From the NCBI GenBank assembly GCA_030648835.1, contig JAUSGT010000003.1, forward strand, positions 1,307-65,306: 64,000 nt of DNA, given 5' to 3'. The notes beneath the pieces were generated by a model that saw only the letters and a program-made list of their open reading frames with translations, was not told where the DNA came from and searched no databases. The first letter of the stretch is position 1, and every line of letters starts with the position of its first letter. The stretch is from Candidatus Moraniibacteriota bacterium (GTDB lineage: Bacteria > Patescibacteriota > Minisyncoccia > Moranbacterales > UBA1568). Shown here one piece after another: positions 6,947 to 49,546 of this stretch. The position numbers were made by a program, and so were the translations under genes.

Positions 6947-8362
6947 ATGAAGTTACCTCAGATTATTCAAGGCGGTATGGGGGTTGGTGTTTCCGGATAC
7001 CTCCTTGCCCGCGCGGTAGCCCTTTCTGGCGGTCTTGGTACCGTTTCAGGAGTGGTTGCACCACATATTTTGGCGCATATTTTGCAGCAAGGTGATCCGG
7101 GCGGTCATTATCGGCGGGCGCTTTCCGCATTCCCTTTTCAAAGTATTGCGCACAATGTTTTTGCCAAATACTTTGTTGAGGGTGGTATCCCATCCGAGAC
7201 AGCGTATCGCACTATTCCTGTGTTCAGTCTTCGACTGCCTCGGGAGCTGGTGGAATTGACTCTTTGCGCGAATTTCGCGTTAGTGTGGTTGGCCAAAGAG
7301 GGGCACAACTATCCGATCAGTATCAACTATCTGGAGAAAATCCAAATCCCCCACCTCTATAGTTTCTTCGGGGCGATGTTGGCCGGGGTGAACGTCGTGA
7401 CGATGGGTGCTGGTATCCCGTTCCAAGTCCCGAGTATTTTGGATGCTTTTGCCCAGGGCCAGTCCGCCAACTATCGGGTTGCTATCGAAGGAAGTCCCGG
7501 CGAAGCTGTTTTTATGGAGTTTGATCCGGAGAAGTTTTTTGACGAAAAGCTTCCTCCACTCAAGCGGCCGGCTTTTTTGCCGATTGTTTCTTCGGACAGT
7601 CTGGCGAAGATTTTGCTGAAGAAAGCCAAAGGGACAACCATCGAAGGGTTCGTGGTTGAGCTTCCGACAGCCGGTGGTCACAATGCCGGACCACGAGGGA
7701 CCCCAAAACGCTTTAACGACCAGGGTGAACCTCTTTACGGGGAGGCCGATCGGGTTGATTTTGAGGAGTTGAAAAAACTTGGTCTCCCGTTCTGGATTGG
7801 TGGATCTCTCGGTTCATCGGAAGGATTGGCAGAGGCGCTCTCGCTTGGCGCCGTAGGTATTCAGGCAGGCTCTATTTTTGCTCTTGCGGATGAATCCGGA
7901 CTGGAGAGCAAACAGAAAAGCCATATTCGCCGGCAAGGGTATCTTGGCGATTTGCGTGTCATCACGAGCCAATGGTCGCCGACCGGATTTCCGTTCAAAG
8001 TTGTCGCTTTGCCCGGGACTACTTCAGAGGATGCGGTTTATCAAGCTCGAAAACGGATCTGCAGTATGAGCTATCTGATAACCCCGTTTCGTCGTCCGGA
8101 TGGTATCATCACCTCGCGTTGTTCAGCAGAACCGGAAAAGAAATTCATTCATAAAGGCGGTGATATCAAAGACACTCTTGGCAAGCGTTGTCTCTGCCAG
8201 GGGCTTTTGGCAAGCGTTGGGTTGGGGAATCCCGATGAACCACAAATTTTCACACTCGGTGATGACGTGAGTTTTTTGCGGAAACTTATGGCGGATAAAA
8301 ACGCCGCATACACCGCGGCTGACGCAATGATCTATCTCACGAGGGGAAAACAGGGTGAATAG
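6947..8362 (+). CDS. Nitronate monooxygenase / 2-nitropropane dioxygenase (NPD) family FMN oxidoreductase (FabK-like fold) with C-terminal extension
   Basis: IIQGGMGVGVSGYLLARAVALSGGLGTVSG is the NMO/NPD signature (QGGM...AGGLG); GAGGAG RBS 5-6 nt upstream of ATG 6947. Confidence 0.6.
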   Translation: MKLPQIIQGGMGVGVSGYLLARAVALSGGLGTVSGVVAPHILAHILQQGDPGGHYRRALSAFPFQSIAHNVFAKYFVEGGIPSETAYRTIPVFSLRLPRELVELTLCANFALVWLAKEGHNYPISINYLEKIQIPHLYSFFGAMLAGVNVVTMGAGIPFQVPSILDAFAQGQSANYRVAIEGSPGEAVFMEFDPEKFFDEKLPPLKRPAFLPIVSSDSLAKILLKKAKGTTIEGFVVELPTAGGHNAGPRGTPKRFNDQGEPLYGEADRVDFEELKKLGLPFWIGGSLGSSEGLAEALSLGAVGIQAGSIFALADESGLESKQKSHIRRQGYLGDLRVITSQWSPTGFPFKVVALPGTTSEDAVYQARKRICSMSYLITPFRRPDGIITSRCSAEPEKKFIHKGGDIKDTLGKRCLCQGLLASVGLGNPDEPQIFTLGDDVSFLRKLMADKNAAYTAADAMIYLTRGKQGE

Positions 8363-11533: not shown

Positions 11534-13285
11534 ATGGCACAGGTCATTGTTATAATGAAAAGGTCTATGTCATTGTCTTTTTCCTCTCACAATTTGAAAC
11601 AATCTTTTGGTATGATTCGTTTCCATACTATCCTGTTTACCTTTTTTCTTCTCTCGCTCCCCTTCTCTATCCGCAAGGTCTTGGGCGTTTTTTCGCCGGA
11701 TGGTTCATTTAATGAGTATTTAGACGTATCTTTATACCTTTCTGACGTCCTGTTTATAGCAGTTTTGATAGTATTTATATTAGAAAATAAAAAAGAATTA
11801 TTGTCAATATCTTACTGGAGACAAATGTTCCACGTGGAACATTTACTTCTCCCCATTTTCATTCCGGCACTCCTTATTTTTTGGTCTGGACTATCCATTT
11901 TATGGTCAGAAAGTGCTCCATTAGCTGTAGTAGCATTTTTTAGGCTTATTGAAGGGTATCTATTATATCTATATATTCTTGTTTGTAATGTTCCACGTGG
12001 AACATTATTGAATAAAGGTGGCCAGACTGATATGTTCCACGTGGAACATTTGGATGACAAAACACAAAATGTTCCACGTGGAACATTTATTGATAGAATA
12101 TTAATCTGTATATCACAATGTTCCACGTGGAACATTTTACAAATATCATTAACTGCAATCATTGTTTCAGGAGCTTTCCAATCCATAGCGGCAATTTTAC
12201 AGTTTATAAGGCAAAAATCTTTAGGACTGACTTTTCTTAAAGAGAGCATTTTTAGTATATATGATCCGGGAGTAGCTAAAGTAGTTATAAGTGGAGATGT
12301 TTTTGTTAGATCTTACGGTTTTTTCCCACACCCGAACATACTTGGAGGCTTTTTGGCACTATCTCTACTCACAACAATTGTTTATCCATTGATATTTAGG
12401 TCAAAAATGTTCCACGTGGAACATCATATTAACGTTTGGCTCTATAGAGGGATAATTATTATACAGCTACTGGCACTTTCTCTTAGCTTTTCCAAATCTG
12501 CCATTCTAGCTTTCGTTATTGGTCTTGCTATGGTTGTTTCCGGAATACACAAAATGTTCCACGTGGAACATTTGGATGACAAAACACAAAATGTTCCACG
12601 TGGAACATTTCAGAATTCAGTAGCTAGCCAGATCCAAAAATGTTCCACGTGGAACATTTATAGAAAATCTATAACAAGTATTTTTAATAAAATGTTCCAC
12701 GTGGAACATTTGATTATTGTATGGACGATCATCATAGCGGGAGTAATGTTACTTTTTATTAATTTAAAGTTTTTTATTGTCCAACCGTTTACTGAGAGGT
12801 TATTTTATATGAGTTCAATTAAAGGCTTATATGAAGCATACTTATTCGAAGGGCTGGGTATAGGACAATATGTTTTTGGTATGCAGCGCTTTTTTATCGA
12901 TAAATTGCTACCATGGCAATTGCAACCTATCCATAATGTGTTTCTCCTTATTTTCAGCGAAATCGGTTTAGTGGGGCTTGTTCTATTTTTATGGTTTCTG
13001 GTCTTTGTTTATTTAAGAAATAACAAAAATGTTCCACGTGGAACATCTACTTACCAAAACCCGGAATGTTCCACGTGGAACAATTCTTTGTCTAGTTATA
13101 TAAAAATGTTCCACGTGGAACAATTATTCAATGCTAGGCAAGCTGTTATAGCCTGTTTATTCCAATCCTTACTAACAATCATCATATTTATCATGTTTTT
13201 TGATCATTACTTTTGGGATATACAACAGGGACAGCTTCTATTATGGATTATACTAGCTTTTACTGTTTCTAATAAGAAATATTGA
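11534..13285 (+). CDS. O-antigen ligase/polymerase (Wzy_C)-like polytopic membrane protein carrying 13 in-frame palindromic-repeat insertions
   Basis: Single 583-codon ORF; >10 hydrophobic segments; RSYGFFPHPNILGGF resembles the O-antigen ligase R-x-G-x-F-x-H-P-H-N loop. The ORF stays open through 13 copies of a 16-22-bp palindrome translated as MFHVEH, NVPRGT(F/L/S) or CSTWNI depending on frame. Confidence 0.55.
   Translation: MAQVIVIMKRSMSLSFSSHNLKQSFGMIRFHTILFTFFLLSLPFSIRKVLGVFSPDGSFNEYLDVSLYLSDVLFIAVLIVFILENKKELLSISYWRQMFHVEHLLLPIFIPALLIFWSGLSILWSESAPLAVVAFFRLIEGYLLYLYILVCNVPRGTLLNKGGQTDMFHVEHLDDKTQNVPRGTFIDRILICISQCSTWNILQISLTAIIVSGAFQSIAAILQFIRQKSLGLTFLKESIFSIYDPGVAKVVISGDVFVRSYGFFPHPNILGGFLALSLLTTIVYPLIFRSKMFHVEHHINVWLYRGIIIIQLLALSLSFSKSAILAFVIGLAMVVSGIHKMFHVEHLDDKTQNVPRGTFQNSVASQIQKCSTWNIYRKSITSIFNKMFHVEHLIIVWTIIIAGVMLLFINLKFFIVQPFTERLFYMSSIKGLYEAYLFEGLGIGQYVFGMQRFFIDKLLPWQLQPIHNVFLLIFSEIGLVGLVLFLWFLVFVYLRNNKNVPRGTSTYQNPECSTWNNSLSSYIKMFHVEQLFNARQAVIACLFQSLLTIIIFIMFFDHYFWDIQQGQLLLWIILAFTVSNKKY
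11823..13125. repeat. Array of 13 copies of a perfect palindrome, core TGTTCCACGTGGAACA (usually AAATGTTCCACGTGGAACATTT), embedded in a CDS
   Basis: Copies at 11823-11844, 11986-12007, 12031-12050, 12067-12088, 12117-12136, 12405-12424, 12552-12573, 12589-12610, 12638-12659, 12690-12711, 13027-13046, 13065-13085, 13104-13125; composite 57-nt unit (repeat + GGATGACAAAACACAA + repeat) identical at 12031-12088 and 12552-12610. Confidence 0.9.
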
Positions 13286-29251: not shown

Positions 29252-29518
29252 ATGGCATTGACGCACAAGCAGAAGGAAAAGGTAACTGGCGCGGTAAAAC
29301 GTCACGAGAAAGACTCGGGTTCTCCGGAATACCAGATTGCGCTTTTCACGGAACAGATCAAGAAATTGACGTCGCACCTGAAAAAGAATAAGAAAGATTT
29401 TCATTCTCGCCGGGGGTTATTGAAGATGGTAGCTAAGCGCAAGAGATTGATGAGCTATCTGGAGAAAACCAATGAAAAATCATATAAGTCAGTAGTGAAG
29501 ACTTTGGGGCTTGATTAA
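29252..29518 (+). CDS. rpsO: 30S ribosomal protein S15
   Basis: GSPEYQIALFTEQIKKLTSHLKKNKKDFHSRRGLLKMVAKRKRLMSYL matches S15 (DHHSRRGLL core). Confidence 0.9.
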   Translation: MALTHKQKEKVTGAVKRHEKDSGSPEYQIALFTEQIKKLTSHLKKNKKDFHSRRGLLKMVAKRKRLMSYLEKTNEKSYKSVVKTLGLD

Positions 29519-29544
29519 GCCCCTTTTTGTTTAATTAAAACATT

Positions 29545-30042
29545 ATGGCGAAGTTTGCAGAACAAAGAGTAGGGGTGTTGGTGGATATCCAGAACTTGTA
29601 TTACAGCGCGCGAGTGCTGTATAACAAAAAAGTGAATTTTAAAAACGTGCTTATGGCGGCGGCCGAAGAGCGCAAGCTTATTCGGGCCATTGCCTACGGT
29701 ATCAAGACGGTGGAAGCCACGGAGGAAAAGTTTTTTGAGGCGCTGGAGAAGAGCGGTTTTGAAGTGAAGACCAAGGATCTCCAGATTTTTCCGGATGGGT
29801 CCAAGAAAGGTGACTGGGATGTCGGTATCGCGGTGGATGCCATCAAGATGGCGGCCAAACTCGATGTCATCGTCATCGTTTCCGGTGACGGGGATTATGT
29901 CTCTCTTGTGGAATATATTCAGAGCACCTATGGTTGCCGCGTGGAGGCTATCGCTTTCGCGGAATCGGCTAGCCAGAAGCTGGTGGAAAAAGTAGACGAC
30001 TTCATCAATCTTTCCCAAAATAAGAAACGCTTTTTGATATAA
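29545..30042 (+). CDS. NYN-domain (LabA/DUF88-like) predicted ribonuclease
   Basis: VGVLVDIQNLYYS at N-terminus and VIVSGDGDYVSLVEY match NYN/LabA-like PIN-related nuclease fold; located between rpsO and pnp. Confidence 0.6.
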   Translation: MAKFAEQRVGVLVDIQNLYYSARVLYNKKVNFKNVLMAAAEERKLIRAIAYGIKTVEATEEKFFEALEKSGFEVKTKDLQIFPDGSKKGDWDVGIAVDAIKMAAKLDVIVIVSGDGDYVSLVEYIQSTYGCRVEAIAFAESASQKLVEKVDDFINLSQNKKRFLI

Positions 30043-32530: not shown

Positions 32531-33670
32531 TTGCGTATGGCCCCCGCATTGTTTTTAAAGAAACAATCAACCGAAAAGGAAGATGGAGAAGAATTGAACA
32601 ATCTTCTCGGGAGAGTGCGTACTATGAAAGATGATCTTGAAGACATTCGACTCGGTAAACAAGGGACGCCTCAGCCTCAAGCCGAAAAACAGAAATCCCA
32701 AAGCGACTTGCTTCAAAAAACGACGAACCCGTTCAGCGAAGCAGGGGAAAAGATTCTTCAGACGCGGGCGCAAGCGAGCGATGGGCAGCCGGGGAATCCA
32801 TTTGGTGTTGCCCCTCGGAACAAAAGTGGACCCATTTCAAATGTCCCACAGTATCCATCTGTGAAAAATGGTTTGTCCGGTCTCGCATCTGATGGTGGGG
32901 GGGTACTTATCAACCGCCCCAAGAGAAATAATCAGACTCTCTTGGTGGCAGGTATCGTCATTTTGACTTTGGCTATTATTTCAGCTGGGGTGTTCTATTT
33001 TTACTCCCAGAGAAACCAGGGGGAGATCTCTCCGCTCTCACCTGATGAAACTTCAAATATTCCGGAGAAGATAGCGGAGGTCCCCTCAAAAGAACCACTT
33101 CTTGCTTTAGACAAGCCAAATTACCTTTCTTTTAATACAGAGACAGTATCCCCAGAAGACATTAAAAAGATTCTTTCCCAAGCGGCTCTCCGTGTCAAAG
33201 CGGGGAACATTACTCGCCCGGTGGAGTTTTTGGTGACCGATCAGAACAACAATCCCCTCGCGTTCAATCGGTTTGCTTTTCTTTTGAAATTGAATCTGGC
33301 TCCAGATGTAGCCGCTTTGGCTAATGAGGCGTTTTCTCTCTATGCTTATAACGATGCTTCACGCGTGCGTTTCGGACTCGCGCTTACCTTCAAAGATGCT
33401 CCAGCCGCCGCTTTGGCTATCGCTAAAGTAGAAAACACCTTGCCGAGTGCGTTTGAAGCTTTGATTTTTGAACCAAACATACAGATTCCTAAAGAGGTTT
33501 CTTTAAGTTCCGGCACTTACAACCAATTTACTATCCATTTTGTAAATATAGACAATAGTCAGAATGTATCGTTCGATTATGTCCTTGACGGCAATCAGTG
33601 GTTTATCGGAACAAGCAAAAATACTATGCACGCGATCTTGGATGCCTATGCAAGGCAGGGTTCACTTTAA
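32531..33670 (+). CDS. Hypothetical membrane-anchored protein with large extracytoplasmic domain
   Basis: 379 aa; single TM LLVAGIVILTLAIISAGVFYFY after a ~130-aa charged N-terminal region. Confidence 0.4.
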   Translation: MRMAPALFLKKQSTEKEDGEELNNLLGRVRTMKDDLEDIRLGKQGTPQPQAEKQKSQSDLLQKTTNPFSEAGEKILQTRAQASDGQPGNPFGVAPRNKSGPISNVPQYPSVKNGLSGLASDGGGVLINRPKRNNQTLLVAGIVILTLAIISAGVFYFYSQRNQGEISPLSPDETSNIPEKIAEVPSKEPLLALDKPNYLSFNTETVSPEDIKKILSQAALRVKAGNITRPVEFLVTDQNNNPLAFNRFAFLLKLNLAPDVAALANEAFSLYAYNDASRVRFGLALTFKDAPAAALAIAKVENTLPSAFEALIFEPNIQIPKEVSLSSGTYNQFTIHFVNIDNSQNVSFDYVLDGNQWFIGTSKNTMHAILDAYARQGSL

Positions 33671-33812: not shown

Positions 33813-33841
33813 TTGACCGAGACATTTTTTTCTGGTATAAT
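33813..33841 (+). promoter_or_regulatory. Near-consensus sigma70 promoter with extended -10 (TTGACC-17-TGgTATAAT) with no ORF downstream
   Basis: TTGACC 33813-33818, 17-nt spacer, TGG then TATAAT 33836-33841. Confidence 0.6.
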
Positions 33842-33847
33842 AGGTAG

Positions 33848-34370
33848 GTAACGAGTAGAACTTTGACAACTGTTTCCTCCAAAACCGTTTCTTGATATGA
33901 ACGGTGGAAGATTTCCCAATCACAATTCCCCCTAATTGTGAAGGGGAACTCTTCCACTATTCAAGCGTCACGACAAAGTTCGCGACCGCCTCGTCCTAAC
34001 ACGAGGACCCAAAACAAAAACAAAGTTGACTTCAGAAAAATAATAAAATCTGAAGAAAAACAAAAAGAAACAAAAAATTGTTCTTTCAAAAAACAAAGGC
34101 CTAGTGCCAGAGAACGGTGGAGGGAGAAGTAGCTAACAAGTTAGGCTAGCTGCGATGGTGCAAGTGCACAAACTACAGGAATGTAAATTGGATTATGAAT
34201 GCTTTCTCACCCGAAGCTACATAACCGACATACCTGTTGGCACATGCAAAGTTCGGGCGTACAGCCAAGTATTTATTTATTGGGCGTCGTACGCCCGGAC
34301 ACCAACATTTCATATGATTGGTAACCGGGTGAAAAGAAGAACGAATGGCTATAAGGCCGTTTTTTTGTTG
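33848..34370 (+). ncRNA. Candidate structured non-coding RNA (unidentified class), ~520 nt from promoter to T-run
   Basis: ORF-free; multiple hairpins (CTTCAGA/TCTGAAG 33984-34012, CGGGCGTAC/GTACGCCCG 34253-34297, AGCTA/TAGCT 34132-34153), pseudoknot-like CACAATT-CCCC-CTA-AATTGTG-AA-GGGG at ~33922-33948, ends GGCTATAAGGCCGTTTTTTT. Confidence 0.3.
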
Positions 34371-34456
34371 TTGAAAAGAGTATATAATGATGACATACTT
34401 TTTTGAAAAGTTTTTTTGGGAGATGAACACTTATTCAATGACACGTCAACGTTTAT

Positions 34457-49364: not shown

Positions 49365-49399
49365 TTGACGGAAAAAATCGCCCTTGCTATAGTAGACCT

Positions 49400-49546
49400 A
49401 CAATTGAAAAAGTATCCAGAGTGAGGCGAGAGAATTGGCTCGTAGACCCTCCGGCAACCATTGATTAAAGGGTGCCACATCCAACCCGCAAGGGAAAGAT
49501 AGTTTCGTCGACATCTTTTCCCCTGTATGGGGATTTTATTTTTTAA
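49400..49546 (+). promoter_or_regulatory. SAM-I (S-box) riboswitch with intrinsic terminator, upstream of metK
   Basis: Aligns to S-box consensus: ATCCAGAGTGAGGCGAGAGAATTGGCTCGTAGACCCTCCGGCAACC...GGGTGCCACATCCAACCCGCAAGGG (cf. ATCAAGAGAGGTGGAGGGACTGGCCCGATGAAACCCGGCAACC...GGTGCCAATTCC); terminator CCCCTGTATGGGG + TTTTATTTTTT at 49520-49546; promoter TTGACG-17-TATAGT at 49365-49393. Confidence 0.6.

Follow-up and report, generated by a model that had tools for sequence, protein, structure and literature searches.

What is transcribed from the near-consensus promoter at positions 33813-33841 of a genome fragment of a Candidatus Moraniibacteriota bacterium? The fragment, called the window in the following, comprises 64,000 nucleotides (nt) of assembly GCA_030648835.1 (contig JAUSGT010000003.1, positions 1,307-65,306), and all feature coordinates are positions in the window. 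A first-pass annotation had proposed a lineage-specific structured non-coding RNA (ncRNA) downstream of this promoter. The proposal was supported by the comparative analysis: promoter, terminator and the ~520 nt between them were conserved in ~24 lineages of Moranbacteria, the predicted base pairs covaried, no reading frame was conserved and no Rfam family matched. The locus is almost certainly a real gene for a structured ncRNA that represents a new family.

Promoter, terminator and non-coding character

Both strands of the window were scanned for promoters. TTGACC-17-TATAAT with a TG extension (33813-33841) was the sole match of 11/12 positions that combined the TG with 17-bp spacing. It had been described as the best promoter of the window, and it kept this rank in the whole-window scan and was conserved in the alignments of all homologs. 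The T7 run at 34363-34369, proposed as the 3′ end, was also confirmed and is preceded by a conserved terminator hairpin. The stem of this hairpin covaries among the homologs, with GGCY/RGCC in some and CCCC/GGGG in others. The RNA start was set ~7 nt past the −10 box and the RNA end at the U-run, both by inference. Altogether, a near-consensus promoter and an intrinsic terminator bracket non-coding sequence, which gives the RNA the appearance of an autonomous transcription unit.

The statement of the first-pass annotation that no open reading frame (ORF) of at least 60 codons follows the promoter was wrong. The + strand holds ORFs of 64 amino acids (aa; 33938-34132) and 83 aa (34155-34406), and the − strand holds an ORF of 85 aa. 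No conserved reading frame was found on either strand, and four ORFs of the window that were tested were broken by stops or frameshifts in most homologs. The ORFs of 64, 83, 31 and 41 aa were rejected as genes, as they were not conserved in the homologs. A conserved small ORF, which the first-pass annotation had named as grounds against an RNA gene, was looked for in the homologs and not found. Indels of 1-2 bases were strewn across the best-conserved blocks of the RNA.

Homologs and synteny

About 24 distinct homologs were recovered by three routes, each located between the genes for YraN and for a hypothetical protein, here hyp379. Among the GTDB loci fetched via hyp379, the intergenic RNA was present in 10 of 10. 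A metagenome scan with an invariant 20-mer from the core segment termed copy 2 below returned 16 loci, 13 of which were true homologs; the remaining three were chance matches inside a coding region and were discarded. Distant relatives of hyp379 and YraN provided eight further loci in nine records (L032/L033, L034, L035, L036, L037, L076, L077 and L078; loci are cited by such labels throughout).

Across the 10 GTDB loci, the RNA showed 77-89% nt identity, compared with 40-62% aa identity for hyp379 and 53-89% aa identity for YraN. In L076-L078, hyp379 was only 22-29% identical, yet a covariance model of the 3′ core of the RNA scored 94-111 bits. Wherever the contig reaches, the gene order was (rpsO-NYN-)pnp-hyp379-RNA-yraN-dksA/traR-lspA, mostly followed by comM, with extra genes ahead of comM in some homolog loci. 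The RNA was located on the yraN strand and directly upstream of yraN in every locus.

Within reach of these searches, the RNA appears confined to one clade of Candidatus Moranbacteria, which belongs to the Candidate Phyla Radiation (CPR, Patescibacteria). Two other Moranbacteria lineages, in which yraN is preceded by dnaJ or an S1 gene, lacked both the RNA and hyp379 at this site. The RNA was single-copy within the window. Searches with nhmmer --max, motif greps and the covariance model R1 with filters off detected no second copy or divergent homolog in the window or in the two RNA-less Moranbacteria loci. Viral, phage and plasmid collections contained no homolog, with pattern scans giving only chance matches and blastn giving no match in phages and plasmids. 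A mobile or phage origin was rejected on this basis. The 16-mer CYGTTGGCACATGCAA matched 37 IMG/VR contigs (L039-L075), none of which held an RNA homolog. Many of these contigs gave one same nhmmer footprint, suggesting a shared phage sequence family that contains CYGTTGGCACATGCAA by chance.

Secondary structure and covariation

The minimum free energy of the interval was −171.8 kcal/mol, corresponding to z = −8.6 for the + strand and −5.1 for the − strand in comparison with dinucleotide shuffles. Covariation was tested in a MAFFT alignment of 21 distinct sequences (A3), which was made blind to structure. The RNAalifold consensus together with one loop-loop helix provided 100 pairs. In A3, 95.8% of the cells were paired, compared with 32-42% when the 3′ partners were slid by 1-3 columns. 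The observed pairing values were reached by none of 500 column shuffles. Compensatory changes on both sides were present in 52 of the 100 pairs; a covariation analysis of homologous intergenic regions had been recommended by the first-pass annotation, and its outcome was extensive covariation. Because many of the conserved pairs are G-U, only the + strand fits the structure.

The fold consists of a 5′ domain with helices P1-P3 and a 3′ domain with P5a, P6, P7 and P8 (Table 1). In an alignment of 24 sequences, from which the 3′-truncated copy L019 was left out, the lower stem of P1 was 94.6% paired and six of its pairs showed double changes. The P1 loop is C-rich in the window (UUCCCCCU, 33927-34) and was swapped for unrelated loops in L005, L006, L008, L009, L014 and L016. 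Two strands of P7, GCACAAACUACAGG and CCUGUUGGCACAUGC, are invariant, and the domain also contains the loop CUCACCCG. The three structural elements proposed earlier fared differently. The 9-bp stem CGGGCGTAC/GTACGCCCG (34253-61/34289-97) is real and corresponds to helix P8, with covariation in 7 of 11 pairs. The hairpin placed at about 33984-34012 exists as P3, but its stem has 5-6 bp instead of 7 and its loop, CCUAAC, is not simply A-rich. The H-type pseudoknot at 33922-33948 had to be abandoned, as its GGGG (33943-46) pairs in a nested manner with UUCCC (33915-19) and this pairing covaries even where the loop has no C-run.

Hairpins of ~60 nt specific to single lineages were present after the first A-rich tract in L032, L037 and L077, and further insertions were located before P5a (L013 loop) and in P2 (L076). 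Such hairpin insertions are typical of structured RNA. Two further helices were considered and rejected. A helix of ACCGUU in the 5′ leader with copy 1 was no better than shuffles, and the leader showed no conserved pairing with the downstream GAACGG segment. A pseudoknot of the P7d loop CUCACCCG with CGGGUGA in the 3′ spacer was possible in only 5-6 of 21 sequences and is not a family feature. The variable 3′ spacer of the closest GTDB relative carried a tandem (GTGATAA)n expansion between core and terminator (L002, ~7770-7850).

Table 1. Features of the RNA gene and their positions in the window. A1, alignment of 11 sequences; A3, alignment of 21 distinct sequences.
Feature	Position	Strand	Observation
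−35 box TTGACC	33813-33818	+	TTGAC invariant in A1
Extended −10 box TGgTATAAT	33833-33841	+	Best-scoring sigma70-like site of the window; conserved in A1
Predicted primary transcript, ~520 nt	33848-34369	+	From promoter and terminator; homologs cover the same interval
Variable 5′ leader	33848-33898	+	Lineage-specific hairpin insertions in some homologs (A1, A3)
P1, long hairpin	33899-33962	+	Lower stem 33899-911/33950-962, upper stem 33912-16/33945-49, P1b 33920-26/33935-41
P2, hairpin	33967-33986	+	Compensatory double changes in 6/7 pairs; expansion of ~50 nt in L076
P3, hairpin	33989-34006	+	Stem covaries, CCUCG/CGAGG vs CUCCG/CGGAG; loop at 33995-34000
A-rich single-stranded tract 1, ACCCAAAACAAAAACAAA	34007-34024	+	Near-invariant in 24 sequences
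P4, hairpin with A-rich loop	34030-34055	+	4/4 counted pairs covary
A-rich tract 2, GAAAAACAAAAAGAAACAAAAAA	34055-34077	+	AAAAAC/AAAAAG hexamer periodicity
Conserved segment GUUCUUUC	34080-34087	+	GUUCUUU near-invariant, last base varies; 5′ strand of predicted P5, or pairs with copy 1 (ALT2)
A-rich single-stranded tract 3	34088-34097	+	Near-invariant
P5a, mini-hairpin GGC-CUAGU-GCC	34098-34108	+	100% paired; one GC-to-CG swap
Core segment AGAGAACGGUGGAGGGAG, copy 2 of GAACGGUGRAGG	34109-34126	+	34112-34124 can pair with the P1 3′ strand 33950-33962 (helix ALT)
P6, hairpin	34129-34153	+	5/7 stem pairs covary; loop at 34140-34145
P7, multi-helix domain (P7a-d)	34166-34247	+	10 pairs with double changes
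P8, hairpin	34252-34299	+	Inner stem GCC/GGC, AU-rich loop; 9 pairs with double changes
Conserved 3′ tail GACACCAACAUU	34299-34310	+	ACCAACA invariant except in the four divergent lineages L034, L035, L076 and L078
Variable spacer	34311-34342	+	8 to ~100 nt in homologs (alignments)
Intrinsic terminator	34343-34369	+	Hairpin 34343-34362 and T7/U7 34363-34369; conserved, stem covaries

Long-range pairings and A-rich tracts

The P3 loop is complementary to the P6 loop, which lies 145 nt away. The loop-loop helix was 99.3% paired among the 24 sequences, with double changes at three of six positions. Most sequences have CCUAAC in the P3 loop and GUUAGG in the P6 loop. The corresponding pairs were UCUAAC/GUUAGA in L009, UCUGAC/GUCGGA in L034 and L035, UCUGAC/GUCAGA in L077 and L078, and CCUAG/CUAGG in L076. 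L014 and L019 each had one mismatch of a terminal pair. The alignments show a 6-bp P3-P6 kissing pseudoknot, which would clamp the 5′ and 3′ domains together.

A second long-range relation involves two near-identical segments ~210 nt apart. Copy 1, GAACGGUGRAAG, forms the 5′ strand of P1 and begins at 33899, and copy 2 begins at 34112. Owing to this duplication, the 13-nt 3′ strand of P1 is able to pair with either copy. Helix ALT, formed with copy 2, was 97.1% paired in the 24-sequence alignment, with double changes in four pairs. Where both copies vary, the P1 3′ strand was always Watson-Crick paired with copy 2. Its pairing with copy 1 included G-U wobbles in three sequences at one varying position and in three at another. 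P1 and ALT are read as mutually exclusive helices that are both under selection. Their exchange could reflect switching, an intermediate of folding or a swap of strands between molecules. ALT2, the alternative pairing of GUUCUUUC with copy 1, was 89% paired and showed no compensatory changes.

Three A-rich tracts join the domains of the RNA. They are near-invariant and have an AAAAAC/AAAAAG periodicity. In L076, P4 is apparently missing and the sequence reads as a continuous A-rich run of ~80 nt. The sequence-specific conservation of these tracts, predicted to be unpaired, suggests a binding platform.

Comparison with known RNA families

With Rfam 15 at gathering score, no family matched the RNA in the window or in 10 homologous loci. 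The Infernal/Rfam scan recommended by the first-pass annotation hence led to no assignment to a known family. Permissive scans of four members, comprising the window copy and divergent homologs such as those of L034 and L037 (E up to 10, down to ~9 bits), revealed no RNase P RNA, transfer-messenger RNA (tmRNA), signal recognition particle (SRP) RNA or 6S RNA. Besides weak matches to RsaE and CrcZ, treated below, these scans yielded nothing above chance level. ARAGORN identified no tmRNA in the window. By direct reading, 33848-34369 contained no P4-type GGAAAGUCC / ACAGAA..GGCUUA pair, no CCA-ended tRNA-like 3′ end and no SRP domain IV motif, and the invariant blocks differ in sequence from the P4 strands of RNase P. 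The earlier remark that signatures of RNase P, tmRNA, SRP and 6S are lacking agrees with these scans and with the motif reading. The models of OLE, ROOL, GOLLD, HEARO and raiA gave no match at gathering or permissive thresholds. A description of such an RNA was not found in the literature on CPR, Patescibacteria, Parcubacteria or Moranbacteria.

Similarities to individual families are restricted to general properties. OLE (RF01071) belongs to the same size class, with ~600 nt compared with ~520 nt, and also combines covarying helices with highly conserved single strands. Both have a strong promoter suggesting high expression, always adjoin the gene of a lineage-restricted membrane protein (oapA for OLE, hyp379 here), and neither has an assigned biochemical function. 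Unlike OLE, which occurs in Bacillota, the RNA is found in CPR bacteria, and the two show no similarity in sequence or covariance model. The hyp379 protein, which is single-pass and has a conserved domain predicted to be extracellular, is not similar to OapA. To our knowledge, long A-rich tracts and a duplicated-strand switch have not been described for OLE. ROOL and GOLLD are likewise large and ornate RNAs of unknown function. Kissing loops reportedly mediate the homo-oligomer contacts of GOLLD, ROOL and OLE, and the complementary loop pairs of the RNA could mediate RNA-RNA contacts. ROOL and GOLLD are often associated with phages or prophages. The RNA does not match their models; its gene is chromosomal, keeps a constant gene order and had no counterpart in the viral, phage or plasmid collections.

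The 6S RNA (ssrS) resembles the RNA in having a promoter of the type that drives abundant transcripts and in its position directly upstream of protein-coding genes, with which it is probably co-transcribed (ssrS-ygfA in Escherichia coli). The operon downstream of the RNA includes a gene for a zinc-finger protein of the DksA/TraR type, and members of this family bind RNA polymerase. In structure the two differ, as 6S RNA is a single irregular hairpin of ~180 nt with a central bubble, whereas the RNA has several domains and gave no Rfam match to 6S.

Proposed function and alternative explanations

The best explanation as a whole is an independent gene for a structured ncRNA of ~520 nt, of an uncatalogued family and limited to one clade of Moranbacteria; we give this explanation, including the function proposed below, about even chances. 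The RNA would act in trans, forming the structured core of a ribonucleoprotein. Proteins may bind to its A-rich tracts as a platform, and the P1/ALT strand exchange would be a two-state switch, or a step of folding or assembly. Read-through of the terminator would probably also feed yraN-dksA-lspA-comM, comparable to the co-transcription of 6S RNA with ygfA in E. coli. The mechanism, a trans-acting ribonucleoprotein scaffold or switch, is a tentative part of this explanation and somewhat doubtful. A wider reading is speculative and rather unlikely. In this reading, the RNA would represent the first class of large, ornate RNAs that is particular to CPR, with kissing-loop-clamped domains and a 13-nt strand toggling between two duplicated partners, and as a ribozyme, an RNA-only assembly or a switchable ribonucleoprotein core it would replace a function lost from these reduced genomes.

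Several observations weigh against the preferred explanation or parts of it. Constrained folding with the nearest-neighbour model gave P1 an advantage of 5-21 kcal/mol over ALT in most members; the predicted state of lowest energy was ALT in L076 and L078 and P1 in all others. Helix P5 (34079-86/34109-16) was 92-93% paired with zero compensatory changes and was weak in L076, and this thermodynamically predicted helix is a possibility without compensatory support. The closing helix of GGUG (34116-19) and CACC (34300-03) was 96% paired and showed little or no covariation. Transcription, transcript ends and abundance are deduced from sequence signals. No partner protein was identified for the RNA, and the C-terminal domain of hyp379 is predicted to be extracytoplasmic from the positive-inside rule, which would make this protein an unlikely RNA binder. 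The gene order is shared by all homologs, so that the genomic context says little on function. Finally, no conserved or good promoter was found between the terminator and yraN, and this spacer comprises 1-60 nt in some lineages, with 1-14 nt in L034, L037 and L078. Due to the short spacer without promoter, a role in cis has to be considered.

Such a role would make the RNA a giant cis-acting leader or attenuator, that is, the 5′ untranslated region of the yraN-dksA/traR-lspA-comM operon, in which the two-state helix and the terminator set the read-through in the manner of a riboswitch or T-box. The spacer, the constant position directly upstream of yraN on the same strand, the mutually exclusive helices and the presence of a terminator are all in accordance with a leader. 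However, more than 200 nt separate the competing helices (33899-33962, 34112-34124) from the terminator downstream, which takes no part in them. Between core and terminator, the sequence is variable, also in its length, and contains no conserved anti-terminator, and the type of terminator stem changes between lineages without a matching change in the core. With 520 nt, at least eight helices and a kissing loop over a long range, the RNA is far larger than known bacterial leaders. Moreover, other Moranbacteria run the yraN operon without it, and it is better conserved than several of the genes under its supposed control. Regulation in cis is thus regarded as improbable. The RNA is also unlikely to work as a ribozyme or to assemble by itself into a particle made of RNA only, as proposed or shown for OLE, ROOL and GOLLD. 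In such a particle, the P3/P6 loops and the duplicated GAACGGUG strands would pair between molecules, yielding a homo-oligomer. The size of the RNA would fit, as would its extensive covariation and the many nucleotides that are invariant in junctions and loops, and the two pairs of complementary elements are equally able to pair in trans. Homo-oligomeric complexes of GOLLD, ROOL and OLE, which are cages in the case of ROOL and GOLLD, have been visualised by cryo-electron microscopy (PMC12286853). On the other side, similarity to these RNAs is absent in sequence and model, no catalytic motif was recognised, and intra- and intermolecular pairing are indistinguishable from the sequence alone.

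Two explanations would link the RNA to known classes. As a base-pairing or sponge small RNA (sRNA), it would act on Shine-Dalgarno regions through the C-rich P1 loop like RsaE/RoxS (RF01820), or titrate an Hfq/Crc-like protein with its A-rich tracts like CrcZ (RF01675). P1 with its CCCCC loop resembles one RsaE hairpin and gave weak recurrent matches of 33.9, 25.2 and 16.3 bits in the window copy and divergent homologs. The A-rich region resembles the A-rich motifs of CrcZ and matched it with 9.6 and 11.1 bits. Its tracts also conform to (A-R-N)n, which Hfq recognises with its distal face. All these scores are far below the gathering thresholds of 79 and 95, respectively, and concern one sub-element each. 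RsaE/RoxS is an sRNA of ~100 nt with two C-rich motifs and a terminator, of which the RNA resembles a single hairpin only, and the C-rich loop, replaced in six homologs, is not the conserved functional element. A simple sponge would also do without ~300 nt of covarying tertiary architecture, and this explanation is decidedly improbable. The lowest probability is given to the possibility that standard models missed a highly diverged RNase P, tmRNA, SRP or 6S RNA owing to aberrant CPR versions, which we consider hardly credible. Such housekeeping RNAs typically combine high conservation with a strong constitutive promoter, as the RNA does, and none of the four was found elsewhere in the window. 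Their absence from the window means little, as it covers a small part of the genome and the source contig alone has 150.7 kb. RNase P RNAs of CPR bacteria do escape the default Rfam thresholds, but they were recovered by RF00010 at low score and kept their core helices (Lui et al. 2021, PMC8172020). The RNA, in contrast, was not matched at E values up to 10 and has no P4 consensus. It also exceeds RNase P, tmRNA, SRP and 6S RNAs in length, is missing next to yraN in at least two Moranbacteria lineages and tracks a lineage-specific protein.

Few bacterial RNAs of unknown function are both large and intricately folded. The main examples, OLE, GOLLD, ROOL, HEARO and raiA, have each opened new biology. 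None was found described for CPR/Patescibacteria, whose genomes comprise ~1 megabase, so every retained 0.5 kb is likely to matter. The RNA is better preserved than several of the proteins encoded around it and is located behind a promoter of top strength. The kissing loop and the two exclusive, independently covarying helices provide precise targets for probing, mutagenesis and cryo-electron microscopy. The alignment is ready as a seed for a new Rfam family and would improve the annotation of metagenome-assembled genomes (MAGs) of Moranbacteria, in which the locus is at present either intergenic DNA without annotation or called as spurious small ORFs.

Neighbouring genes

The hyp379 gene (32531-33670) is located upstream of the RNA. 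Apart from a difference of two residues in the start call, its product is identical to a hypothetical protein of a Candidatus Moranbacteria MAG. The protein family comprised 84 clusters. Most carry no informative organism name, and all that do are Moranbacteria or Moraniibacteriota. In the AlphaFold model, the N-terminus is disordered, a single transmembrane helix is present and the C-terminal alpha/beta domain is modelled with confidence. No Pfam domain was detected in hyp379 and a Foldseek search of the PDB returned no match below E = 0.05, and the protein was dismissed as a functional clue.

Further upstream (29252-30042), the window shows an rpsO-pnp arrangement with an inserted gene for an NYN-domain protein, ahead of hyp379 and the RNA. 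The identity of S15, the rpsO product, was read from the translation, and the NYN domain is known from the homolog loci. A sequence resembling a DnaA box, CTGTGGATAA, adjoins the hyp379 homolog immediately behind its stop codon, upstream of the RNA promoter, in the divergent lineages L034 (5114-5150), L035 (5132-5165) and L076 (4109-4125). In some Moranbacteria, small proteins with an RRM_1 domain are encoded near yraN or pnp (L028 4950-5243, L076 1-50). These are possible candidates for binders of A-rich RNA.

Other features of the window

The region 11822-13138 contains 13 copies of a perfect palindrome of 18-22 nt, (A)AATGTTCCACGTGGAACATT(T), arranged in three main clusters and two isolated copies. 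Within a cluster the spacing is 37-52 nt, and the GC content of the region is low (0.31-0.36). The region is open as a frame of 583 aa (11534-13285, + strand) and gave matches to miRNA-like hairpins in Rfam. The array could encode a repeat protein with the motif MFHVEH, form an array of protein-binding sites with a CACGTG core or represent an RNA array. An S-adenosylmethionine (SAM) riboswitch (RF00162) was identified at 49409-49505 on the + strand with 57.5 bits, above the gathering score. A promoter-like sequence, TTGACG-17-TATAGT, is located near this riboswitch at 49365.

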